This document shows, piece by piece, positions 3,019 to 21,974 of a stretch of 24,000 bases of DNA. A program made the position numbers and the translations under genes. The notes beneath the pieces are model-generated. The model saw only the letters and a program-made list of their open reading frames with translations, did no database searches and was not told the origin of the DNA. This DNA comes from Candidatus Heimdallarchaeota archaeon (GTDB taxonomy: Archaea; Asgardarchaeota; Heimdallarchaeia; Hodarchaeales; Hodarchaeaceae), in assembly GCA_020353515.1 (NCBI GenBank), contig CP070695.1:2436913-2460912 (forward strand), written 5' to 3'. The stretch's first letter is position 1. Each line of letters begins with the position of its first letter.

Positions 3019-6000
3019 TCAATGTCTTCTTCGCAAGAAAACAAGTACTGATAATATAGCAAATCCTGCAATTAACGCTGTAAAGCCTGGTGTTGATACA
3101 CTAGGACGCTCGATACTTGTGGTTGATGTGGATGGTTCAGGTTCTGTTGTGGTGGGAGCCGTAGTACCGTCAGGCTCAACTGGAATCGTAGTTGTAGGTT
3201 CTGGTTCAGGTATCTCAACCGTGAACCAAACACTTGTTTCCCCTGTATTTCCGACGAGATCACTCGTATAGATAACAAGATAATGTGAACCTTCTGATAA
3301 TGACCCTAGTAAAGTATTACCTGTGATAGTTATATTTGTGGCCCCATCCAGAGAGTACCCAATCCAGGAAGCGGGTTCGTCGATTGTAAAGTCAATCCAG
3401 ACTTCATCTGTTGTATATGTGACATTCATCGGACCAGCTAGGTCAATATTTGGATTAAGGGTGTCTATTGTAAACCAATCAACAGTAAAACTACCTGAAT
3501 TTCCTGCAAGATCGTTGGTATAGATGGTAACATTATGGGTGCCTTCCGAAAGGGAGTCTAGTAACTTGTTTTCTGTAATTGTCACATTTGCAGCCCCATC
3601 GAGAGAATACCCAATCCACGAAGTGGGTTCATTCACAGTAAAGTTTAACCAAATACTGGAGCTGGAATAACCTTGATTGGTAGGATTAGTAATGGTTATC
3701 TTAGGTGGATTAACGTCGTATTGACCCCATACTCGGAAGGAAAAATCAAACCCAGGATCTGATTCTTCTAAGCTACTGATTCCCCGATAATAATTGGAAC
3801 TCACTCCAGGGATACCTCTCCAGTAATAACGATTTGCTGGTCCAGTAGATGGGGTATCAGTGCAAATGGAAATGTTGTAGGACTGACCAGCTATTAAGTG
3901 TAATGAACCAGGGATCGAGATATTCACCCAACCCAAAATGGTGATATCAGTTGGAAGTATCATTGTTTGCCATAGAATGTTTTGACCTTGTGATATATTA
4001 ATCAAAACATTGCCAGGATCTCCATCTCTTGTGATATAAAGATCTAACCGTGTTAAGGTATCATAGACTGGGATAAATTCTTGCCAGCGGATTAAATCCT
4101 CATCAAGCATGACAGAAAGGCCTGTACTATCTTGGACTTGATCTAAATATGCACTTCTATCGCAGAACAACCCTGTGGTCTTGAACGCATAGTCGAATGT
4201 AGGATTACTTGCCTGTTTATTAGTAATTCCCCGTGTATAATTAGATATTGGATGGCCCATCCATAAATAATATTGGGTCAAAGGGATGTAGGGATCCTCA
4301 CTCCGTACATAAATATAGTAAGAATTCTCTGGAATTAATGACAATGGCGCAGGGAAAGATATACTCACCCAACCTTCTGTCACAGGCATATCAGCTTCGA
4401 AGATAGTAGTAATCCAGAGTGTTGATTGATCATCAGTAATATTCACTAGGACATTCCCAGGATCACCAATTCTTTTGAAGTAGAGGTCTAGTTGAGTTAA
4501 CGTGGAATAATATGGTTTGAATTCTTGCCACGCATTCCAAGAATTACTAAAGAAATAACCTTCATCAATACTATCCTGGATTTGATCTGTAAACCCACTA
4601 AGATCACTCGATCGGATCCATGTCCGAAACGCGTAGTCATATGTAGGCCAACCTGACTGCACATTTGTATCACCTCGAGTATAATTGGATACAATGTGAC
4701 CGCTCCAGGCATAATAATGTGTACCTGAAACCATAGGATCAACACTCCGAATATAGATATAGTAGGAATTTCCAGGAATTAAAGGAAGAGCGGATAGGAA
4801 GGAAATACTCACCCAGCCACCTGGTGCTGGGATCTCCGCTTGGGAGACAGTGGTATTCCAAACAGTGGTCTGACCATCGGTAATATTCACCAAAACATTC
4901 CCTGGATCCCCCATTCTCTGGATATTGAGATCAAGTTGAGTTAACGGGGCAAATAATGGTACAAATTCTTGCCATGCGTTCCATGAATCAGTAAAAGCAA
5001 AACCATAATTCACAGCTTCTTGTACTTGGTCTAGGTAAGTAGCTGTATCACTTGGAGTACTCCATGTTCTGAAAGCAAAGTCATATGTGGGCCAACCATC
5101 ACCAACACTAGGCATTCCTCTATAATAATTGGACTTAATAAATCCCCTCCAGACATACTGGTTGTCAACATCAGGAGAAGGAGCATCACTTCCAACAGAA
5201 ATAAAATATGATTGTTCAGGAACCAAAGGGAGGGCAGGATCAACTGAAATGTTTATCCAACCAAAAGTGTTGATATCTGCTTCCAAGATGGTGGTATTCC
5301 AAAGCGTTCTGTGTCCATCACTTATTTTAATTTGCATATTCCCAGGATTGCCGTATTTGTTAATATAAAGATCCAAACGAGTCAGGGTTGAATATAAAGG
5401 CTTGAATTCTTGCCAGCGGATTACTTCAGCTTCAAACCAAAAGCCGTAATTAACTCCGTTTTGTGTCTGGTCTAAATATATCTCTCTGTCATTTGATAGA
5501 CTCCATGTCACAAAAGTAAAATCAAAATTAGGTTGAGTAGTGATGCTACTAACTCCGCGTGTATAATTAGAGTTGAGATGCCCATCCCAAGTATATCGAT
5601 CACTAGTGGATGTAGAATCTGTGTCACTCCTAACATAGATGTAATACAACCGCTCTGGGATTAAAGGAAGCGCTGATTCCAGAGTAATGTTCACCCAAGT
5701 AGCCCCACTCATAATATTTGCTTCCAATACAGTGGTGTTCCATAAGGATTGCTGGCCATCTGTAATGTTAACCAACATATTCCCAGGATTACCAATTTTA
5801 TCAACATTAAGATCTAATCGAGTTAAAGTAGAATACATTGGTCTGAACTCCTGCCAGCGAATTACTGTGTCATCAAACCAATAACCATAGTTCTCGTCTC
5901 CCTGTGTTTGGTCTAGATCTTCACCTATCTCATAAGCTCCTGATGTTTGAAATATAAAAAAGCCTGATATAATCAGCAAGAACATTCCTAAAATTAAGAA

Positions 6001-6039
6001 CATTGACTTTTTCTGTCTTTTAATAGTGAACATTATCAT
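3019..6039 (-). CDS. Large repeat-containing cell-surface (S-layer-like) glycoprotein with PGF-CTERM archaeosortase sorting signal
   Basis: 1006-aa ORF. Signal peptide (KRQKK + hydrophobic core + SGA). Five ~147-aa repeats and two ~85-aa Ig-like repeats. Thr/Pro/Glu-rich linker (EPEPTTTIPVEPDGTTAPTTTEPEPSTSTT). C-terminal PGFTALIAGFAILSVLVFLRRRH, i.e. PGF + TM + basic tail. Many N-x-S/T sequons. AGGAG lies upstream of the ATG. Confidence 0.88.
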   Translation of the reverse strand: MIMFTIKRQKKSMFLILGMFLLIISGFFIFQTSGAYEIGEDLDQTQGDENYGYWFDDTVIRWQEFRPMYSTLTRLDLNVDKIGNPGNMLVNITDGQQSLWNTTVLEANIMSGATWVNITLESALPLIPERLYYIYVRSDTDSTSTSDRYTWDGHLNSNYTRGVSSITTQPNFDFTFVTWSLSNDREIYLDQTQNGVNYGFWFEAEVIRWQEFKPLYSTLTRLDLYINKYGNPGNMQIKISDGHRTLWNTTILEADINTFGWINISVDPALPLVPEQSYFISVGSDAPSPDVDNQYVWRGFIKSNYYRGMPSVGDGWPTYDFAFRTWSTPSDTATYLDQVQEAVNYGFAFTDSWNAWQEFVPLFAPLTQLDLNIQRMGDPGNVLVNITDGQTTVWNTTVSQAEIPAPGGWVSISFLSALPLIPGNSYYIYIRSVDPMVSGTHYYAWSGHIVSNYTRGDTNVQSGWPTYDYAFRTWIRSSDLSGFTDQIQDSIDEGYFFSNSWNAWQEFKPYYSTLTQLDLYFKRIGDPGNVLVNITDDQSTLWITTIFEADMPVTEGWVSISFPAPLSLIPENSYYIYVRSEDPYIPLTQYYLWMGHPISNYTRGITNKQASNPTFDYAFKTTGLFCDRSAYLDQVQDSTGLSVMLDEDLIRWQEFIPVYDTLTRLDLYITRDGDPGNVLINISQGQNILWQTMILPTDITILGWVNISIPGSLHLIAGQSYNISICTDTPSTGPANRYYWRGIPGVSSNYYRGISSLEESDPGFDFSFRVWGQYDVNPPKITITNPTNQGYSSSSIWLNFTVNEPTSWIGYSLDGAANVTITENKLLDSLSEGTHNVTIYTNDLAGNSGSFTVDWFTIDTLNPNIDLAGPMNVTYTTDEVWIDFTIDEPASWIGYSLDGATNITITGNTLLGSLSEGSHYLVIYTSDLVGNTGETSVWFTVEIPEPEPTTTIPVEPDGTTAPTTTEPEPSTSTTSIERPSVSTPGFTALIAGFAILSVLVFLRRRH
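3214..3723 (-). repeat. Two tandem ~82-88 aa Ig-like/beta-sandwich coding repeats
   Basis: aa 773-860 and 861-942 align with each other: WLNFTVNEPTSWIGYSLDGAANVTITENKLLDSLSEGTHNVTIYTNDLAGNSG versus WIDFTIDEPASWIGYSLDGATNITITGNTLLGSLSEGSHYLVIYTSDLVGNTG. Confidence 0.75.
3724..5934 (-). repeat. Five tandem, diverged ~441-444 bp coding repeats (about 147 aa each) inside the surface protein
   Basis: The landmark (Y)LDQxQ recurs at aa 42, 189, 336, 484 and 632. Shared blocks are xWQEFxPxYSTLTxLDL, GxPGNxLVNITDGQ, LWNTT, GWVxIS, LPLIPxxSYYIYVRS, SNYTRG and FDYAFRTW. On the plus strand the complement of the WQEF codons recurs near 4085, 4528, 4972, 5413 and 5855. Confidence 0.85.
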
Positions 6040-7391: not shown

Positions 7392-9110
7392 ATGATTTCA
7401 CCAAATTCTGAAAAAGACCATTTAGGAAAAGACTTCATTCGTAAAATGATTTCGGAAGATGTGAAAAATAATAAAAACAATGGCCGAGTCCATACCCGTT
7501 TTCCTCCTGAACCAAATGGCTGGCTCCATATAGGCCATGCAAAATCAATTCATCTCAATTTCACTATCGCAGAAGAATTCAATGGATTATGTAATTTACG
7601 GTTTGATGATACTGATCCGGCAAAAGAAAGTATGGAATACGTTGAAGCCATAAAAAAAGATGTTCAATGGCTTGGGTTCGATTGGGAGGATAGACTCTAT
7701 TTTGCTTCAGATTATTTTGAACAGTTATATCAATTTGCTATAGAACTGATTAAAGCTGGTAAAGCGTATATCTGTGATTTGAGTGTTTCCGAAATTAAAG
7801 AACAAAGAGGAACCTCTGAAGAACCAGGGATTGAAAGTCCGTATCGGAACCGATCAGTAGAGGAAAATATTGATTTATTCGAGAGGATGCGTAAAGGAGA
7901 GTTTGAAGACGGTTCCCGAGTGTTACGGGCTAAGATTGATATGACTTCTCCTAATATGCTAATGCGTGATCCAATTATGTACCGAATCAAGAGAGAAGCA
8001 CATTATAGAACTGGAAACGATTGGGTAATTTATCCCAGTTATGATTATACTCACGGTCAGTCTGATGCAATCGAAGGAATCACACATTCACTCTGTTCTT
8101 TGGAATTCGAAACTCATAGACCTCTTTATAATTGGTATAGAGATCAATTGTTAACTTTAAACTTACTTAAATTCTGCCCAGAGCAGACTGAATTTTCACG
8201 ATTGAACTTGACATATACTGTTATGAGCAAACGACGCTTATTAGAATTGGTTGAAGGTGGACATGTTTCTGGTTGGGATGATCCCCGTATGCCAACTCTT
8301 GCTGGTTTACGAAGACGTGGACTGCCCCCTGAAGCTATTAGGCGTTTCTTAGCAAAAGTAGGCATTTCTAAAAGGGAGAACTATATTGATGTGGGTCTCT
8401 TAGAATCCTGTATTCGTGAGGAATTGGATGAAACGTGTAAACGTGTGATGGCTGTATTACGGCCTTTAAAGGTTATCATCCTGAATTATCCTGAAGGTGT
8501 TGTTGAAGAGTTAGAGGCATCCAATCATCCTAAAGATTCAAGTATGGGCTCGCGAAAAATTCCATTTTCACGGATACTGTATATAGAGCGTGATGATTTT
8601 CTTGAAGATCCACCTAAAAAGTTCTATCGATTAGCTCCTGGAAGAGAAGTCCGATTACGATATGCCTATTTCATCAAATGTGTTGATGTTATCAAAGACG
8701 GAATAAATGGCGAGATTAAAGAAGTACATGTGACTTATGATCCAGAGACTAAAGGAGGATTTGCTCCAGATGGACGTAAAGTGAAAGCTACTCTCCACTG
8801 GGTTTCAGCGAACCATGCAATTCCTGCAGAAGCACGTTTATATGATCGGCTTTTTATTAAGGAAAATCCAATGGACGATGCTAACTTCATTAAAAATCTA
8901 AATACTGATTCATTAGAGAAGCTAACCTGTTTTGTGGAATCAAGTCTTGTGAGTGCGGCTCCAGGAATGAGATACCAATTTGAACGATTAGGATATTTCT
9001 GCGTGGATTCAGTTGACTCCTCAGGTAAACGACTGGTCTTCAATCGAACAATAACTTTACGCGATACTTGGTCTAAGCTCAAACAATCCCAAAAAAGGAT
9101 GAAAAAATAA
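7392..9110 (+). CDS. glnS: Glutaminyl-tRNA synthetase (glutamine--tRNA ligase), bacterial type
   Basis: 572-aa ORF. The HIGH region is [23 protein letters not shown] and the KMSKS region is VMSKR. Blocks [69 protein letters not shown] and [12 protein letters not shown] are collinear with E. coli GlnRS as I remember it. That includes the C-terminal beta-barrel anticodon-binding domains. Confidence 0.92.
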
Positions 9111-9169
9111 TTTATCCTTTTATCACAAAAATCTAGTAATTTTACGTCCTTTTCATGTTAAAAGGGTGA

Positions 9170-9241
9170 CAGCCCCGCCCAGAATCGAACTGGGGTTATA
9201 GGATTCAGAGTCCTAAGTGATAACCGCTACACCACGGGGCT
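9170..9241 (-). tRNA. tRNA-Gln (anticodon CUG)
   Basis: Minus-strand read: AGCCCCG TG GTGT AGCGGTTA TCAC T TAGGA CTCTGAA TCCTA TAAC CCCAG TTCGATT CTGGG CGGGGCT G. This gives a clean cloverleaf with a 7-bp acceptor and 5-bp anticodon and T stems. The T-loop is TTCGA, the anticodon is CTG, and no CCA is encoded. Confidence 0.88.
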
Positions 9242-9286
9242 CATCATGCGAATCATCATATTTAAGTCAAGTATAGAAGAAAGAAA

Positions 9287-16091: not shown

Positions 16092-16430
16092 TTGGCTACA
16101 GTAACTTTATGCTGGCAAATCTCTAATATCCTTTTGTTATTCACCTTATTCATAGCTGTCCTCGGCTTATTAAGTCGAATTCATTGGATTTCGATTGGTC
16201 GTATCAGTAGATATAATGTTTCTTTTTTATTATTTTATATATTTAGTATTTGTGCGATATTTTTGCAATGGTTAGTTATTAATGGTTCTTTGATGTTCTT
16301 GCCGTCTTCATCAACCTATACTTATATCGCTCTTTGGTTCAAGGGGGCCTTATGTTCTTTAATCTTGTCCTCATTCTTTCTTATCTACATTGGTCAGCAC
16401 AGTTTTGTGATTAGAAAATTTTCGACATAA
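16092..16430 (+). CDS. Membrane protein, N-terminal 3-TM segment of a probably interrupted 7TM sensor gene
   Basis: 112-aa hydrophobic ORF. The start is TTG with GGTGA 9 nt upstream. It ends at TAA 16428-16430, in the same reading frame as the next ORF. Confidence 0.5.
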   Translation: MATVTLCWQISNILLLFTLFIAVLGLLSRIHWISIGRISRYNVSFLLFYIFSICAIFLQWLVINGSLMFLPSSSTYTYIALWFKGALCSLILSSFFLIYIGQHSFVIRKFST

Positions 16431-16481: not shown

Positions 16482-17162
16482 TTGATCTTTTTAATATTCA
16501 CTGATGTAACAGTAATTGATATTATTGATAATAGCCCCTCGTTCGATTTTAATCCTCCTATTACTCTTGTTTTAACTGCTTTATATGGCTCACTCAGTGG
16601 AGGATTGTTCGCTTTTATCTCATTGCGATCGAGAATCCGAACGTTTAAAGAACCAGTTAAGGATTTAATACCAATATATCCATTTTATCTAGGGTTCACT
16701 TTAATTGGAGGATGTTGCCTCATATTTATTGGTTTCATTATAATTTTTGATCCAGTTCTAGGTTCTATGTGGCCATGCTTACGGATGTTCTTATCTTCCA
16801 CTATCTATCTTATCTTCTTATGGTTTCCAACAATGGAATCAATGTTTGAGATCTTTTTTCAAAGCCGTATGGACAGAATTGAAACAGTACTGGGTAGGGA
16901 CAAAGTATTAGACATTATCGATCACGATCTAGCTAATGTTACACAGATTCTCCATACATATTTTGAAACAATTCAACTATCTGATCAGGAGAGAGAGTTT
17001 TTAAAGAAGCAAGTTGACCGCATGAACAAACTAATAACAGAATCACGAGCTATAGTGATACACGAAGATGATATGTTAGTACAGGAATTAATGAGATTTT
17101 ACAAATCAACACGTGTTCAAAACAATCTTTTAGATAAATCCAAAACAAAAAAAGAAGCCTAA
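16482..17162 (+). CDS. Membrane protein with 4 TM helices plus a HisKA-like (DHp) domain and no ATPase domain; continuation of the preceding ORF
   Basis: 226-aa ORF in frame with 16092-16430. The frame is open from 16431, and the first TM helix (HFIAVFYFFCIGILIFLIFT) starts upstream of the called TTG. The C-terminal region LDIIDHDLANVTQILHTYFETIQLSDQEREFLKKQVDRMNKLITESRAI fits the histidine-kinase H-box/DHp pattern. No N/G1/G2 boxes follow. Confidence 0.55.
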   Translation: MIFLIFTDVTVIDIIDNSPSFDFNPPITLVLTALYGSLSGGLFAFISLRSRIRTFKEPVKDLIPIYPFYLGFTLIGGCCLIFIGFIIIFDPVLGSMWPCLRMFLSSTIYLIFLWFPTMESMFEIFFQSRMDRIETVLGRDKVLDIIDHDLANVTQILHTYFETIQLSDQEREFLKKQVDRMNKLITESRAIVIHEDDMLVQELMRFYKSTRVQNNLLDKSKTKKEA

Positions 17163-17318
17163 AACCATTAATTTTCTGTACCGACTGGATTCTATAATAC
17201 TTTCTTGCCATTTAATAGAATGGATGATTCATTGGGATTTGTAAATCCATTTAGTAAGGTTAAAAAATTCTTACTCATTTATTACATATTTTCATAAAAA
17301 ACAGCAGGTGAATATTAG

Positions 17319-17939
17319 ATGAAAACAAATCAAGTAATAAAAATAATAATTCCATTAGTACTCTTATTGGGTGCCGCTACTGCTTTTATTGTTGCGGTTA
17401 TTGGTAGCCAGCAAGTGAATACTACAGCAGAGACTCAAGAGTCAAATCAAGCTACTAGTGCCTACATAGCTTTCCTCTATATTGAAGGTGTTGATGGTGA
17501 AGCTCAAGCACAGGATCATGAAAATTGGATTGAGGTTCTTGCTTATTCCCATAATGTTATGACCGCGGATCCAACAGGTGCAGTCCGCACTGCAGGCTCA
17601 GTACAGCACGCTCCACTTCGGATTACCAAAATGGTAGATAAGGCCTCACCTAAACTGTACGAAAAGTGTGTTAACGGTGAAACGATCGTTTCAGTAAAAC
17701 TGGATTGCTGCACAGCCTTTGGCGAAGACTTGAAAGTGTTCTATCAAATTGAACTGCAGAATGCAATGATCACTTCAGCTCAAGATTTTGGTATAGTAGC
17801 AGGAGAAGGAATTCCTACTGAGACTGTTTCTTTCACATATGAATCCATTAGATGGACATATTCGGAATTTGATGCTGCAGGTCAAAAAAAGGGAGATATA
17901 CAAACACCTTGGATCTCCACAGAGACCTCAGAAACCTAA
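17319..17939 (+). CDS. Hcp/TssD-family (type VI secretion tube protein fold) protein with N-terminal signal peptide or signal anchor
   Basis: 206-aa ORF with AGGTGA 7 nt upstream of the ATG. aa 1-30 are K-rich plus a hydrophobic helix (IIIPLVLLLGAATAFIVAVIG), followed by a polar linker. From aa ~48 the sequence aligns block by block with Hcp1: IAFLYIEGVDGEAQAQDHENWIEVLAYSHNV, LRITKMVDKASPKLYEKCVNGE, YQIELQNAMITS and PTETVSFTYESIRWTY. Confidence 0.85.
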   Translation: MKTNQVIKIIIPLVLLLGAATAFIVAVIGSQQVNTTAETQESNQATSAYIAFLYIEGVDGEAQAQDHENWIEVLAYSHNVMTADPTGAVRTAGSVQHAPLRITKMVDKASPKLYEKCVNGETIVSVKLDCCTAFGEDLKVFYQIELQNAMITSAQDFGIVAGEGIPTETVSFTYESIRWTYSEFDAAGQKKGDIQTPWISTETSET

Positions 17940-17966
17940 TAAATCAAGAAAAACCGTTGACCAATA

Positions 17967-18641
17967 ATGAAAAAGTCGAAGACTCCTTTTTTAATAGTCA
18001 TATTCGCATTAGTCGGTTGTACCTTGAGCCCATCTATAGCTAATCAACAAACTATCGACATTCTACAAGTAACGAAGATTGGTTCATCTGTCTCAATTTT
18101 TCTAGATTTTGATCTGAACTCAACCTCCCAGCTTGATTCAAATAAATCATTAGCAGTATTAGTCGTATTTACTCAAGATGAACCATTCGTAATTGAGGCA
18201 ACGATGTTATTCTTCCATACAGTAGAAGAAGACTTCCTTTTCTGGATGCTTGGAGATCCCTATACTCAAGCCCAGATCTGGCAATTAGGTGTTGAAAATG
18301 AGCATTTTCAAACTCAAAATGAATTATTAACTTTGAATTTCATAGAATACCTTGGTATCACCAAACCCGAAATAAATCCTTTTGTGATAGCTTTAATCGC
18401 TTCAGGTGAAGTAAATAATCAGACAAATGATTTTAGACCAATTTTAGAGCAATTTGTAATGTTTTTACCTATACATTATGAATTTCCAAGCATAGAGCAG
18501 CCAGGTACTACTGAAGAGACATCAGCTAAAAAATCGTCTCAAGGAAGCGTGGGTGGTCTTACACCAGGTTTTACAATCCTTTCTACTGTGGGTATCTTTC
18601 TTTCAACACTCATTGTACTAAGATTCAAACGGAAAAAGTGA
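17967..18641 (+). CDS. Putative lipoprotein with PGF-CTERM sorting signal, otherwise uncharacterised
   Basis: 224-aa ORF starting 27 nt after the Hcp-like gene. The N-terminus MKKSKTPFLIVIFALVGC carries a lipobox-like LVGC. The C-terminus has a Thr/Ser/Glu linker, then PGFTILSTVGIFLSTLIVLRFKRKK (PGF + TM + basic tail). Confidence 0.72.
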   Translation: MKKSKTPFLIVIFALVGCTLSPSIANQQTIDILQVTKIGSSVSIFLDFDLNSTSQLDSNKSLAVLVVFTQDEPFVIEATMLFFHTVEEDFLFWMLGDPYTQAQIWQLGVENEHFQTQNELLTLNFIEYLGITKPEINPFVIALIASGEVNNQTNDFRPILEQFVMFLPIHYEFPSIEQPGTTEETSAKKSSQGSVGGLTPGFTILSTVGIFLSTLIVLRFKRKK

Positions 18642-21411: not shown

Positions 21412-21974
21412 TTAATCTAAGGCATCTAAACTCTCAGGTGGAGCTGCAATTTTTCCATTCAAGATTGGATCATTAGTTTCTTCTAGCCACTGGACTAACA
21501 TGGTTTTTAGGCTTCCCTTTATCTTAGAATACTCATGTTTGTTAGCTAGATTCTTCATTTCAAACGGATCATTCTCTAGATCATACAGCTCTTCTTCTTC
21601 TATAGGGATATTAAAATCAGGATTTTGTTTAATGTATATCTCTGTGGATTCTGTTGATGCAAAACCAATTGGAATTTCGAAGCGAGTTGGAATAGTCTCA
21701 AAATTCATAATAAATTTCCATTTTCTTGTACGAATTGCTCGCATTGCATTATAGCAATCATGATATGTCAATTCTGAGAAGATATGTTCTCGTTCTTTGT
21801 ACTCTTCGCCTTTTAACAATGGATAGAAACTTCGGCCTTTAACATCTTCTGGAACCTCCACTCCTACTAATTCTGACAATGTTGGGTATAAATCGATATT
21901 GGATGTCCATAACAACCAAAATAATCTCCAGTGTCATGAGTTATAATTAGGATAATGTTTGGGGTAGAATTCAT
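21412..21974 (-). pseudogene. Sulfatase (arylsulfatase family) remnant with a large internal deletion and frameshift
   Basis: The ATG at 21974 opens MNSTPNIILIITHDTGDYFGCYG, a typical sulfatase N-terminus. That frame then runs into a TAG at 21867-21869. A different frame (21412-21915, TTG only, no ATG) encodes the sulfatase C-terminal region (TSNIDLYPTLSELVGVEVPEDVKGRSFYPLL...LYDLENDPFEMKNLA). The catalytic C/S-x-P-x-R segment and the central ~250 aa are absent. Confidence 0.72.

Follow-up and report, generated by a model that had tools for sequence, protein, structure and literature searches.

Hcp (TssD) forms the tube in type VI secretion systems (T6SS), and its presence is read as diagnostic of this mode of secretion. 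The Hcp proteins of this system carry no leader, so that the chain starts directly with the barrel, and they are loaded into a sheath in the cytoplasm. A different arrangement is found in the DNA analysed here, a stretch of 24,000 nucleotides from a Candidatus Heimdallarchaeota archaeon (contig CP070695.1, positions 2,436,913 to 2,460,912; hereafter the window), where two open reading frames (ORFs) with ATG starts follow each other on the + strand. The first (17319-17939) encodes an Hcp-like protein of 206 amino acids (aa), the second (17967-18641) a protein of 224 aa that is referred to below as the partner. Both lie in the same frame and are separated by a 27-nt spacer, and a Shine-Dalgarno-like AGGTGA (17306-17311) is located 7 nt 5' of the Hcp-like ATG; the two ORFs, their spacing and the AGGTGA agree with what an earlier note on this DNA had described.

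The conserved export leader of the Hcp-like protein and its constant pairing with an orphan surface gene suggest that the Hcp fold has been reused at the cell surface, seemingly as a device that operates without an injection machine. We hold with moderate confidence that the pair constitutes a self-contained, T6SS-independent module, in which a Sec-exported, membrane-tethered Hcp ring acts together with the partner at the cell surface. The module is specific to an Asgard clade, namely to metagenome-assembled genomes (MAGs) labelled Heimdallarchaeota, Hodarchaeota, Hodarchaeales or Promethearchaeota.

The Hcp domain and its leader

The product of 17319-17939 belongs to the Hcp/TssD family, both by sequence and by predicted fold, as had been proposed in the earlier note. 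PF05638 matches aa 52-181 over the full profile (positions 1-129 of 129; E=1.2e-36, 126.3 bits, cutoff 23.5), TIGR03344 (TssD) reaches 88.4 bits (cutoff 58.9), and phmmer retrieves solved Hcps, the best being 7fcf (E=4.5e-29), followed by 4w64, 3eaa and 1y12. In the phmmer alignments residue 48 of the Hcp-like protein pairs with residue 1 of the crystallised chains. The AlphaFold2 (AF2) model, which was built on 34 homologues, consists of a helix (aa 6-29), a disordered segment (aa 30-46, confidence score pLDDT <50) and a barrel with pLDDT >95, and Foldseek superposes this modelled core on solved Hcps with template-modelling (TM) scores of up to 0.93 and root-mean-square deviations of 1.4-3 Å (E=6e-16). 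The identity with genuine T6SS Hcps is 30-40%. The identical protein is entered at NCBI as 'MAG: type VI secretion system tube protein Hcp [Candidatus Heimdallarchaeota archaeon]' and the partner as 'hypothetical protein JSW11_11440', and both NCBI and JGI annotate the Hcp-like family as T6SS tube protein or effector. Since the protein appears to be neither leaderless and cytoplasmic nor associated with T6SS genes (see below), this annotation is misleading about its function.

The 47 aa that precede the core are composed of a basic tail, a hydrophobic helix of 21 aa and an acidic linker with a glycosylation sequon (N-T-T, aa 34-36), as the earlier note had read from the sequence. This leader is aligned without gaps in about 42 Asgard orthologues, with the pattern MKTNQxx(R/K)-IIIPxVLLLGxATxFxVAxLG-(S/N)QQxN(T/A)S, and its mean pairwise identity of 0.60 compares with 0.55 for the Hcp core. 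Gly18 is present in all 42 orthologues, R/K8, which closes the conserved cytoplasmic tail MKTNQxx(R/K), in 41 and Pro12 in 36, while positions 22, 26 and 29 are occupied by small residues. The uncharged run measures 19-24 aa (mean 21.3) and is flanked by a net charge of +2.0 before and -2.2 after it. The linker motif (S/N)QQxN(T/A)(S/T) is conserved, and in 31 of the 42 orthologues the end of the helix is followed by an N-x-S/T sequon at a distance of no more than 14 residues. Judged from its sequence, this pattern is the signature of a signal-anchor with N-in/C-out topology or of a specialised signal peptide, and in either case the Hcp domain would be placed outside the cytoplasmic membrane.

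The leader is genuinely part of the protein, in line with the earlier note. Alternative in-frame starts are restricted to TTG17, GTG33, ATG81 and ATG105, the first internal ATG thus being codon 81. GTG33 is unconserved, the residue being Val in only 25 of the 42 orthologues. Since the leader is conserved at the protein level, the true start does not lie downstream, and a mis-called start was rejected. A class III signal of the archaeal pilin or archaellin type was rejected as well, since the residue directly before the helix is R/K8 (41/42), with I or V ahead and without G, A or S at -1, and thus the [KR][GAS] motif directly before the hydrophobic stretch is missing.

The partner protein and the conserved gene pair

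The partner starts with a signal peptide, which is followed by a beta-rich domain (about 150 aa), a Thr/Ser/Glu-rich stalk and a tail of the PGF type. A hydrophobic N-terminus is found in the complete members of the family. The domain is modelled by AF2 mostly as strands (pLDDT 72-91 over aa 31-170); it contains two conserved sequons (NST and NxS) and a very conserved stretch, MLFFHT...FLFWMLGDPYTQAQxWQxGxENEHF. The stalk is a T/S/E-rich insertion that varies between about 10 and 45 aa across the family alignment and has a pLDDT of about 30. In the last 26 residues (TPGFTILSTVGIFLSTLIVLRFKRKK) the PGF is followed by a hydrophobic helix and the basic cluster RFKRKK, a motif that is conserved in the family alignment. 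The earlier note had assigned this tail to PGF-CTERM and had additionally seen a lipobox. The features of the tail are indeed visible, but the PGF_CTERM profile TIGR04126 gives no match at E<=1, and the best match, NCBIfam Heimdall-CTERM (NF045529; aa 199-223), scores 21.6 bits and thus below its cutoff of 24; this profile matches 10 of 32 family members at E<0.01. As for the lipobox, LVGC is present in the partner of the window and its closest relatives, but is absent from the partners of the related loci L001, L002, L004 and L005 and from about half of the family alignment. The motif is therefore a trait of a clade and not of the family, so that the partner is not treated as a lipobox lipoprotein.

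The domain itself is not matched by any Pfam, PHROG or PADLOC family, nor by NCBIfam beyond the C-terminal signal. A structural comparison likewise returned nothing significant, as the best Foldseek matches in the PDB (an archaeal pilin, FlaF and T4 gp9) reach an E of 0.047 with TM <=0.3, and the best match in BFVD an E of 2e-3 at TM 0.18; a known fold or family was rejected on these grounds. Among 5.8 billion proteins, a profile search retrieved 49, every one of them a member of this family and, where a source is named, from an Asgard MAG. Between E=1e-27 and 0.01 there is an empty gap, and the family is confined to the same lineages as the Hcp-like orthologues. As far as sequence and model can tell, the partner is an orphan family with the architecture of a surface protein, and its domain is new. 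In a related Heimdall genome of 3.16 Mb (CP070760.1) the partner gene is interrupted by a run of N (L001:10941-11043), and NCBI lists two different 'partial' partners for this genome (JSV04_05145 and JSV04_11885; P0093 and P0272), so that a second copy of the partner or an assembly problem at the locus is possible there.

The pairing of both genes was followed through contexts obtained by exact protein look-up and a scan of one genome per GTDB species, which together gave 18 distinct Asgard loci. In all 18 the partner lies directly 3' of the Hcp-like gene on the same strand, and this adjacency, for which the earlier note had asked, persists down to 36% Hcp identity in 'Ca. Hodarchaeum mangrovi'. 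The pair was found only in Asgard MAGs, most of which are labelled Heimdallarchaeota, Hodarchaeota or Hodarchaeales. An all-against-all comparison of the flanking ORFs revealed no third conserved gene, since no other gene is common to more than four of the 18 loci. Neither T6SS nor contractile injection system (CIS) nor phage or virion Pfam families occur among the called neighbours in six related loci or in flanks of 6-10 kb per side at the 18 loci, and family scans of the 24-kb window found no T6SS core genes such as tssA-M, vgrG or clpV and no CIS or virion genes, so that the missing T6SS machinery reported in the earlier note is borne out. By contrast, the nearest leaderless homologue examined (P0047, 166 aa) is embedded in a bacterial T6SS cluster that is complete and comprises TssA, B, C, E, F, G, K, L and M, and serves as a positive control for the canonical context of hcp.

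One could nevertheless regard the gene as an ordinary accessory hcp, which supplies a tube subunit to a T6SS or another contractile system elsewhere in the genome and whose leader is irrelevant or mis-called. The public annotation and the identity of 35-40% with genuine T6SS Hcps would agree with this, as would the contractile-tail-related genes that have been reported in some Asgard MAGs (PMC9230969), given that the genome scan made here covers 24 kb. However, an anchor inserted co-translationally at the N-terminus would separate the domain by the membrane from any cytoplasmic sheath into which it could be loaded, purifying selection acts on the leader in all orthologues, and no ATG yields a complete leaderless product, GTG33 being the sole candidate. 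Furthermore, the 18 neighbourhoods contain no T6SS or CIS genes, in contrast to the surroundings of P0047, and the tubes of CIS and myoviruses belong to other families. T6SS is not known from archaea, which also counts against an accessory hcp, and we consider this explanation very improbable.

Even less credence is given to the possibility that the pair is cargo of a provirus or another mobile element, in which case an Asgard virus integrated in the genome would have contributed a gene of the tail-tube type together with one for a receptor-binding or envelope protein. PHROG 27303, which has no assigned function, does match the Hcp core (E=1.2e-23), and the neighbours of the pair vary between genomes. 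In one JGI contig an IS605 OrfB/Cas12f-like TnpB is located directly downstream of the pair (L005:9650-10939), the only mobile-element gene beside any copy of it. Yet genes for a capsid, terminase, portal or integrase are missing from the window and from the called related neighbourhoods, and the family has no match in 2.9 million viral contigs. The matches in the phage database are confined to leaderless hcp genes of bacterial type, and several of the records concerned are entire contigs of bacteria. With a GC content of 0.35-0.40 the pair does not leave the range of the window (0.30-0.41), and the homologue search gave a single Hcp-like match from the genome of the window, so that the gene looks single-copy there. 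A viral or mobile origin was rejected on the basis of the viral-contig and phage-database searches, and we regard it as extremely improbable.

The strict linkage of the two genes could also reflect the logic of the T6SS itself, in that the lumen of the Hcp ring would house the partner as an effector- or ligand-like cargo, and the carrier with its cargo would target neighbouring cells, be it in antagonism or during contact with a syntrophic partner. An hcp gene followed by a gene for a small protein mirrors the hcp-effector pairs of bacteria, and with about 150 aa the domain could be accommodated in a lumen of about 4 nm. The partner, however, has its own signal peptide, a stalk and a membrane-anchoring tail, unlike released effectors, it matches no toxin, enzyme or immunity family, and a conserved third gene of the immunity type is missing. 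It also evolves slowly in the manner of a structural protein, with a mean column identity of 55%. A carrier-cargo function is accordingly judged quite improbable.

Exported relatives and a model for the pair

The earlier note had held that the leader sets the protein apart. This is the case with respect to the canonical Hcp of the T6SS, but the leader is not unique. A HMMER search of 1.84 billion cluster representatives yielded 6653 Hcp relatives, and the best 150 of these, together with 61 homologues from a first search, were surveyed for their domains, which gave 209 proteins with a domain call. A leader was counted when an N-terminal extension of at least 18 aa contained a strongly hydrophobic 12-mer. 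Of the 164 single-domain proteins in this survey, 110 bear such an extension in the form of a signal peptide, a lipobox or an anchor, which indicates that exported Hcp-like proteins constitute a wider, undescribed class, within which the Asgard proteins are a single lineage. Examples are Pedosphaera parvula WP_007418924 (Verrucomicrobia), Dehalococcoidaceae MBN1369585, which has a lipobox, and several proteins of Planctomycetota, some of which combine a signal peptide with C-terminal dockerin-like tails. At one locus (L008) two Hcp genes with signal peptides (196 and 431 aa) adjoin each other without T6SS genes, and at another (L026) an anchored Hcp is followed by a secreted protein of 219 aa; no T6SS genes were seen at the inspected loci of bacterial leader-bearing Hcps. 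A second leader-bearing type is represented by P0234 (MCH8906309.1, labelled Ca. Heimdallarchaeota archaeon), which has an unrelated leader (MDYKLKNFTALVVTFLVVTSGIVLF) and falls outside the main Asgard clade.

The same set contains proteins with several PF05638 domains in tandem. Six domains were counted in 25 proteins, whereas two, three, four and seven domains were counted in 8, 6, 5 and 1, respectively. The six-domain proteins (P0095-P0103 and others) are single chains of 970-2164 aa and look like pseudo-hexameric, exported Hcp rings made from one polypeptide. Such a preference for six copies per chain would follow if exported Hcp-like proteins function as six-fold rings, and it argues in favour of this. 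At the locus of P0095 in a Planctomycetaceae MAG (L025:2794-9444, CAYYNP010000019.1) the ORF comprises 2216 aa with six domains, and the protein has an export-type N-terminus (RLEPRLVLS), an Ig-like Big_13 domain, an HExxH motif and dockerin-like repeats.

In neighbour-joining trees, 71 of 100 bootstraps recover the Asgard-type proteins as a monophyletic group, and the leader-bearing fraction is 0.71 in the enclosing clade against a background of 0.51. This is a weak hint that the immediate ancestor of the archaeal family was itself an exported protein and not the product of a T6SS tube gene; the resolution is too weak to name the donor of the Asgard family. The literature searched contained no paper describing Hcp homologues in Asgard archaea, Hcps with signal peptides or six-domain Hcps, and nothing relevant was found on Heimdall-CTERM or on Hcp in Planctomycetes; the 'Hcp' in PMC11193907 is the hybrid cluster protein and was rejected as irrelevant.

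Taken together, the PF05638 match, the conservation of the pair and the conserved leader support the proposal of the earlier note that an Hcp fold has been repurposed as an exported, envelope-associated protein, and the following arrangement can be envisaged. The two genes would be co-transcribed, as suggested by the short spacer and the invariant adjacency. The Hcp-like protein would be inserted through Sec with its N-terminus inside and its C-terminus outside, a topology that is predicted from the charge distribution and the hydrophobic length, so that the barrel would come to lie outside the cytoplasmic membrane on an acidic tether of about 18 residues with the sequon. Six copies would assemble into the ring typical of the fold, and the six helices could pack through the invariant Gly18 and the small residues 22, 26 and 29. 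Because of the symmetry of such a ring, the six N-termini would emerge on one face, so that the plane of the ring would be parallel to the membrane, with six short tethers below it. Ring assembly tolerates additions at the N-terminus, since PDB chimeras fused at the N-terminus of Hcp1 keep hexameric rings (GspE-Hcp1, 4ksr/4kss; Vps4-Hcp1, 6ap1; TrwK-Hcp1, 7o42). The partner would be exported by means of its ordinary signal peptide, and its motif suggests that an archaeosortase would convert the PGF/Heimdall-CTERM signal into a lipid anchor, above which the glycosylated stalk would extend. Small proteins that are encoded beside hcp genes are bound by Hcp rings, and by analogy, as well as from the strict co-occurrence, the beta-rich domain of about 17 kDa is proposed to bind the ring. 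The most likely role of the pair would be that of a structural or adhesive surface complex.

Several points weigh against this model. Ring formation, the interaction between the Hcp-like protein and the partner, and processing by an archaeosortase are deduced from sequence and analogy, and the Heimdall-CTERM score of the partner stays below the curated cutoff. The hydrophobic run of the leader ends in G, S, T or A in 37 of the 42 orthologues, which would also suit signal peptidase I, and conserved leaders can be specialised and yet be cleaved, as in signals of the YSIRK type. According to the rule established for the eukaryotic oligosaccharyltransferase, a sequon about five residues past an embedded helix is too near the membrane for glycosylation, so that the conserved sequon, about five residues beyond the helix, would be too close if the helix stays embedded. 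Finally, sheath homologues have been reported in MAGs of Lokiarchaeota and Thorarchaeota, and homologues of the myoviral terminase in complete genomes of Heimdallarchaeota (PMC9230969). The least certain element of the model is the retention of the leader, since the small residue that closes the run and the near sequon would both be in keeping with cleavage and release.

Such a release would lead to a different assembly, in which the leader is removed and the mature protein, starting at about residue 30 and N-glycosylated at the sequon, stacks into rings or tubes, with the lipid-anchored partner as their base, cap or coat. The small residue at the end of the run and the sequon that follows it would agree with this, and Hcp proteins are tube-forming by nature. 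An Hcp tube is about 9 nm wide. In its boldest form the released tube would be a surface filament of cultured Hodarchaeales, and the restriction of the pair to Asgard MAGs with labels such as Hodarchaeales is in keeping with this. These cells carry helical surface filaments 'of unknown nature', which are 15-25 nm thick, have round tips and sit on protrusions at the interface with the partner methanogen, and which are absent from cultured Promethearchaeales (10.1101/2025.02.26.640444). However, a hydrophobic segment of 19-24 aa with an invariant Gly, a conserved Pro and a conserved cytoplasmic tail fits a retained anchor better, the Hcp tube is thinner than the filaments, and the round tips of about 50 nm may indicate that the filaments are something else, e.g. 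virus particles. In addition, neither the preprint nor its searched supplement files mention Hcp (10.1101/2025.02.26.640444), and the single-chain relatives with six domains point to single rings. A released tube is therefore considered unlikely, and the link of the Hcp-like protein to the filaments is speculative. A still broader proposal would see Sec-exported Hcp-like rings as an unrecognised class of surface or extracellular structures that arose from the tail-tube fold of phages and spans archaea and bacteria, with members in Asgard archaea, Planctomycetota, Verrucomicrobia and Dehalococcoidia, and would have the Hcp-like protein and its partner build, in Hodarchaeales, the unexplained helical filaments on the protrusions that contact the syntrophic partner; as a whole, this is a long shot.

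The membrane-tethered ring with its partner, which we prefer, would have consequences beyond this locus. It corrects a misleading annotation in an archaeal lineage and points to a second life of the tail-tube fold outside contractile machines, which is supported by the leader-bearing and the single-chain six-domain relatives of bacteria. Furthermore, the pair nominates two candidate cell-surface components of the archaea closest to eukaryotes, the surface structures and syntrophic contacts of which have seen little molecular characterisation so far. What appears to be new is that, in the archaea nearest to eukaryotes, an exapted and exported Hcp ring would have a partner of its own; the protein is nested within a broader, unrecognised class of exported forms.

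The window and comparison with known systems

The features of the pair are collected in Table 1. The TATA-like stretches upstream of the Hcp-like gene may function as a promoter.

Table 1. Sequence features of the Hcp-like gene, its partner and the adjoining DNA in the window.
Feature	Position	Strand	Basis
Upstream A/T-rich region, putative promoter	17260..17318	+	TATA-like TTAAAAAA (17260-17267), TTTATTA (~17279-17285), AGGTGA
Hcp-like protein, leader aa 1-29 (basic tail and 21-aa hydrophobic helix IIIPLVLLLGAATAFIVAVIG)	17319..17405	+	AF2 model; 42 orthologues
Hcp-like protein, acidic polar linker aa 30-47	17406..17459	+	low pLDDT in AF2; sequon N-T-T (aa 34-36); alignment columns
Hcp-like protein, complete domain of the Hcp/TssD fold aa 48-200, short acidic tail and stop	17460..17939	+	PF05638, TIGR03344, phmmer, Foldseek
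Intergenic spacer, 27 nt	17940..17966	+	sequence; adjacency in 18 distinct related loci
Partner, predicted signal peptide aa 1-26 (MKKSKTPFLIVIFALVGCTLSPSIAN) with lipobox-like LVGC inside	17967..18044	+	sequence; family alignment
Partner, beta-rich globular domain aa 27-176	18045..18494	+	AF2 model; invariant residues in the family alignment
Partner, Thr/Ser/Glu-rich low-complexity stalk aa 177-198	18495..18560	+	pLDDT ~30 in AF2; variable length in the family
Partner, predicted C-terminal sorting signal aa 199-224 (TPGFTILSTVGIFLSTLIVLRFKRKK) of PGF-CTERM/Heimdall-CTERM type, and stop	18561..18641	+	NF045529; conserved motif

The remaining genes of the window are ordinary archaeal housekeeping genes and encode, among others, a Glu/Gln-tRNA synthetase of class I, a histidine kinase, a radical-SAM enzyme, a TauE exporter, a creatininase-family protein, methyltransferases, GNAT acetyltransferases, an ABC-2 permease and a surface protein of 1006 aa. 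The latter (3019-6039, - strand) is a predicted surface protein whose DUF4082 and Big_13 matches do not exceed the Pfam cutoffs and whose tail weakly resembles PGF_CTERM (17.9 bits, aa 981-1006), which suggests that C-terminal sorting of this type is used by other envelope proteins of this genome. Upstream of the pair, two ORFs with TTG starts (16092-16430 and 16482-17162, + strand) would encode multi-pass hydrophobic proteins that match no family; on the metagenome contig L033 a gene is called for the second, and neither is conserved beside the pair in other genomes. An ORF of 167 aa on the - strand (21412-21915) matches only the C-terminal part of a sulfatase (SGSH_C, Sulfatase_C) and may be truncated, a pseudogene or an ORF with a mis-set start. 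In the related locus L002 a full sulfatase of 433 aa (7942-9243) adjoins a radical-SAM/SPASM maturase.

Among the described systems, the Hcp/TssD proteins of the T6SS (PF05638, TIGR03344; e.g. P. aeruginosa Hcp1, 1Y12, and A. baumannii Hcp1, 4W64) are the closest to the first gene, with which they share the full-length domain, the predicted fold and probably the six-fold ring. The Asgard protein differs from them in that its core starts only at residue 48, behind the conserved export or anchor leader of 47 aa, and in that it is archaeal, is always paired with an orphan surface protein and is not accompanied by T6SS genes at any of the 18 loci. In the alignment it also shows short deletions in two loops, and its predicted topology would preclude loading into a cytoplasmic sheath. 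The leader-bearing Hcps of bacteria resemble it more in this respect, as their Hcp domain likewise follows a signal peptide, a lipobox or a transmembrane anchor. However, the Asgard leader has a conserved sequence of its own (MKTNQxxRIIIPxVLLLG...), the profile search places the partner family outside bacteria, and the bacterial proteins have other neighbours or fusions, such as dockerin and Ig-like domains or an HExxH motif.

The partner can be compared with archaeosortase substrates, i.e. proteins with PGF-CTERM (TIGR04126, e.g. the S-layer glycoprotein of Haloferax volcanii) or Heimdall-CTERM (NF045529). It shares with them the tripartite tail behind a Thr/Ser-rich stalk, the N-terminal signal peptide and the conserved sequons. 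By contrast to the curated substrates, it scores below the cutoffs and contains a globular domain without a recognisable relative. The S-layer protein of cultured Hodarchaeales is a different, homotetrameric protein (10.1101/2025.02.26.640444). The engineered Hcp1 fusions (4KSR/4KSS, 6AP1, 7O42) finally provide a parallel for the proposed archaeal form, since in these a polypeptide is linked to the N-terminus of Hcp and the hexameric ring is kept. These fusions are artificial and cytoplasmic, whereas the N-terminal element of the archaeal protein would be a natural membrane helix.

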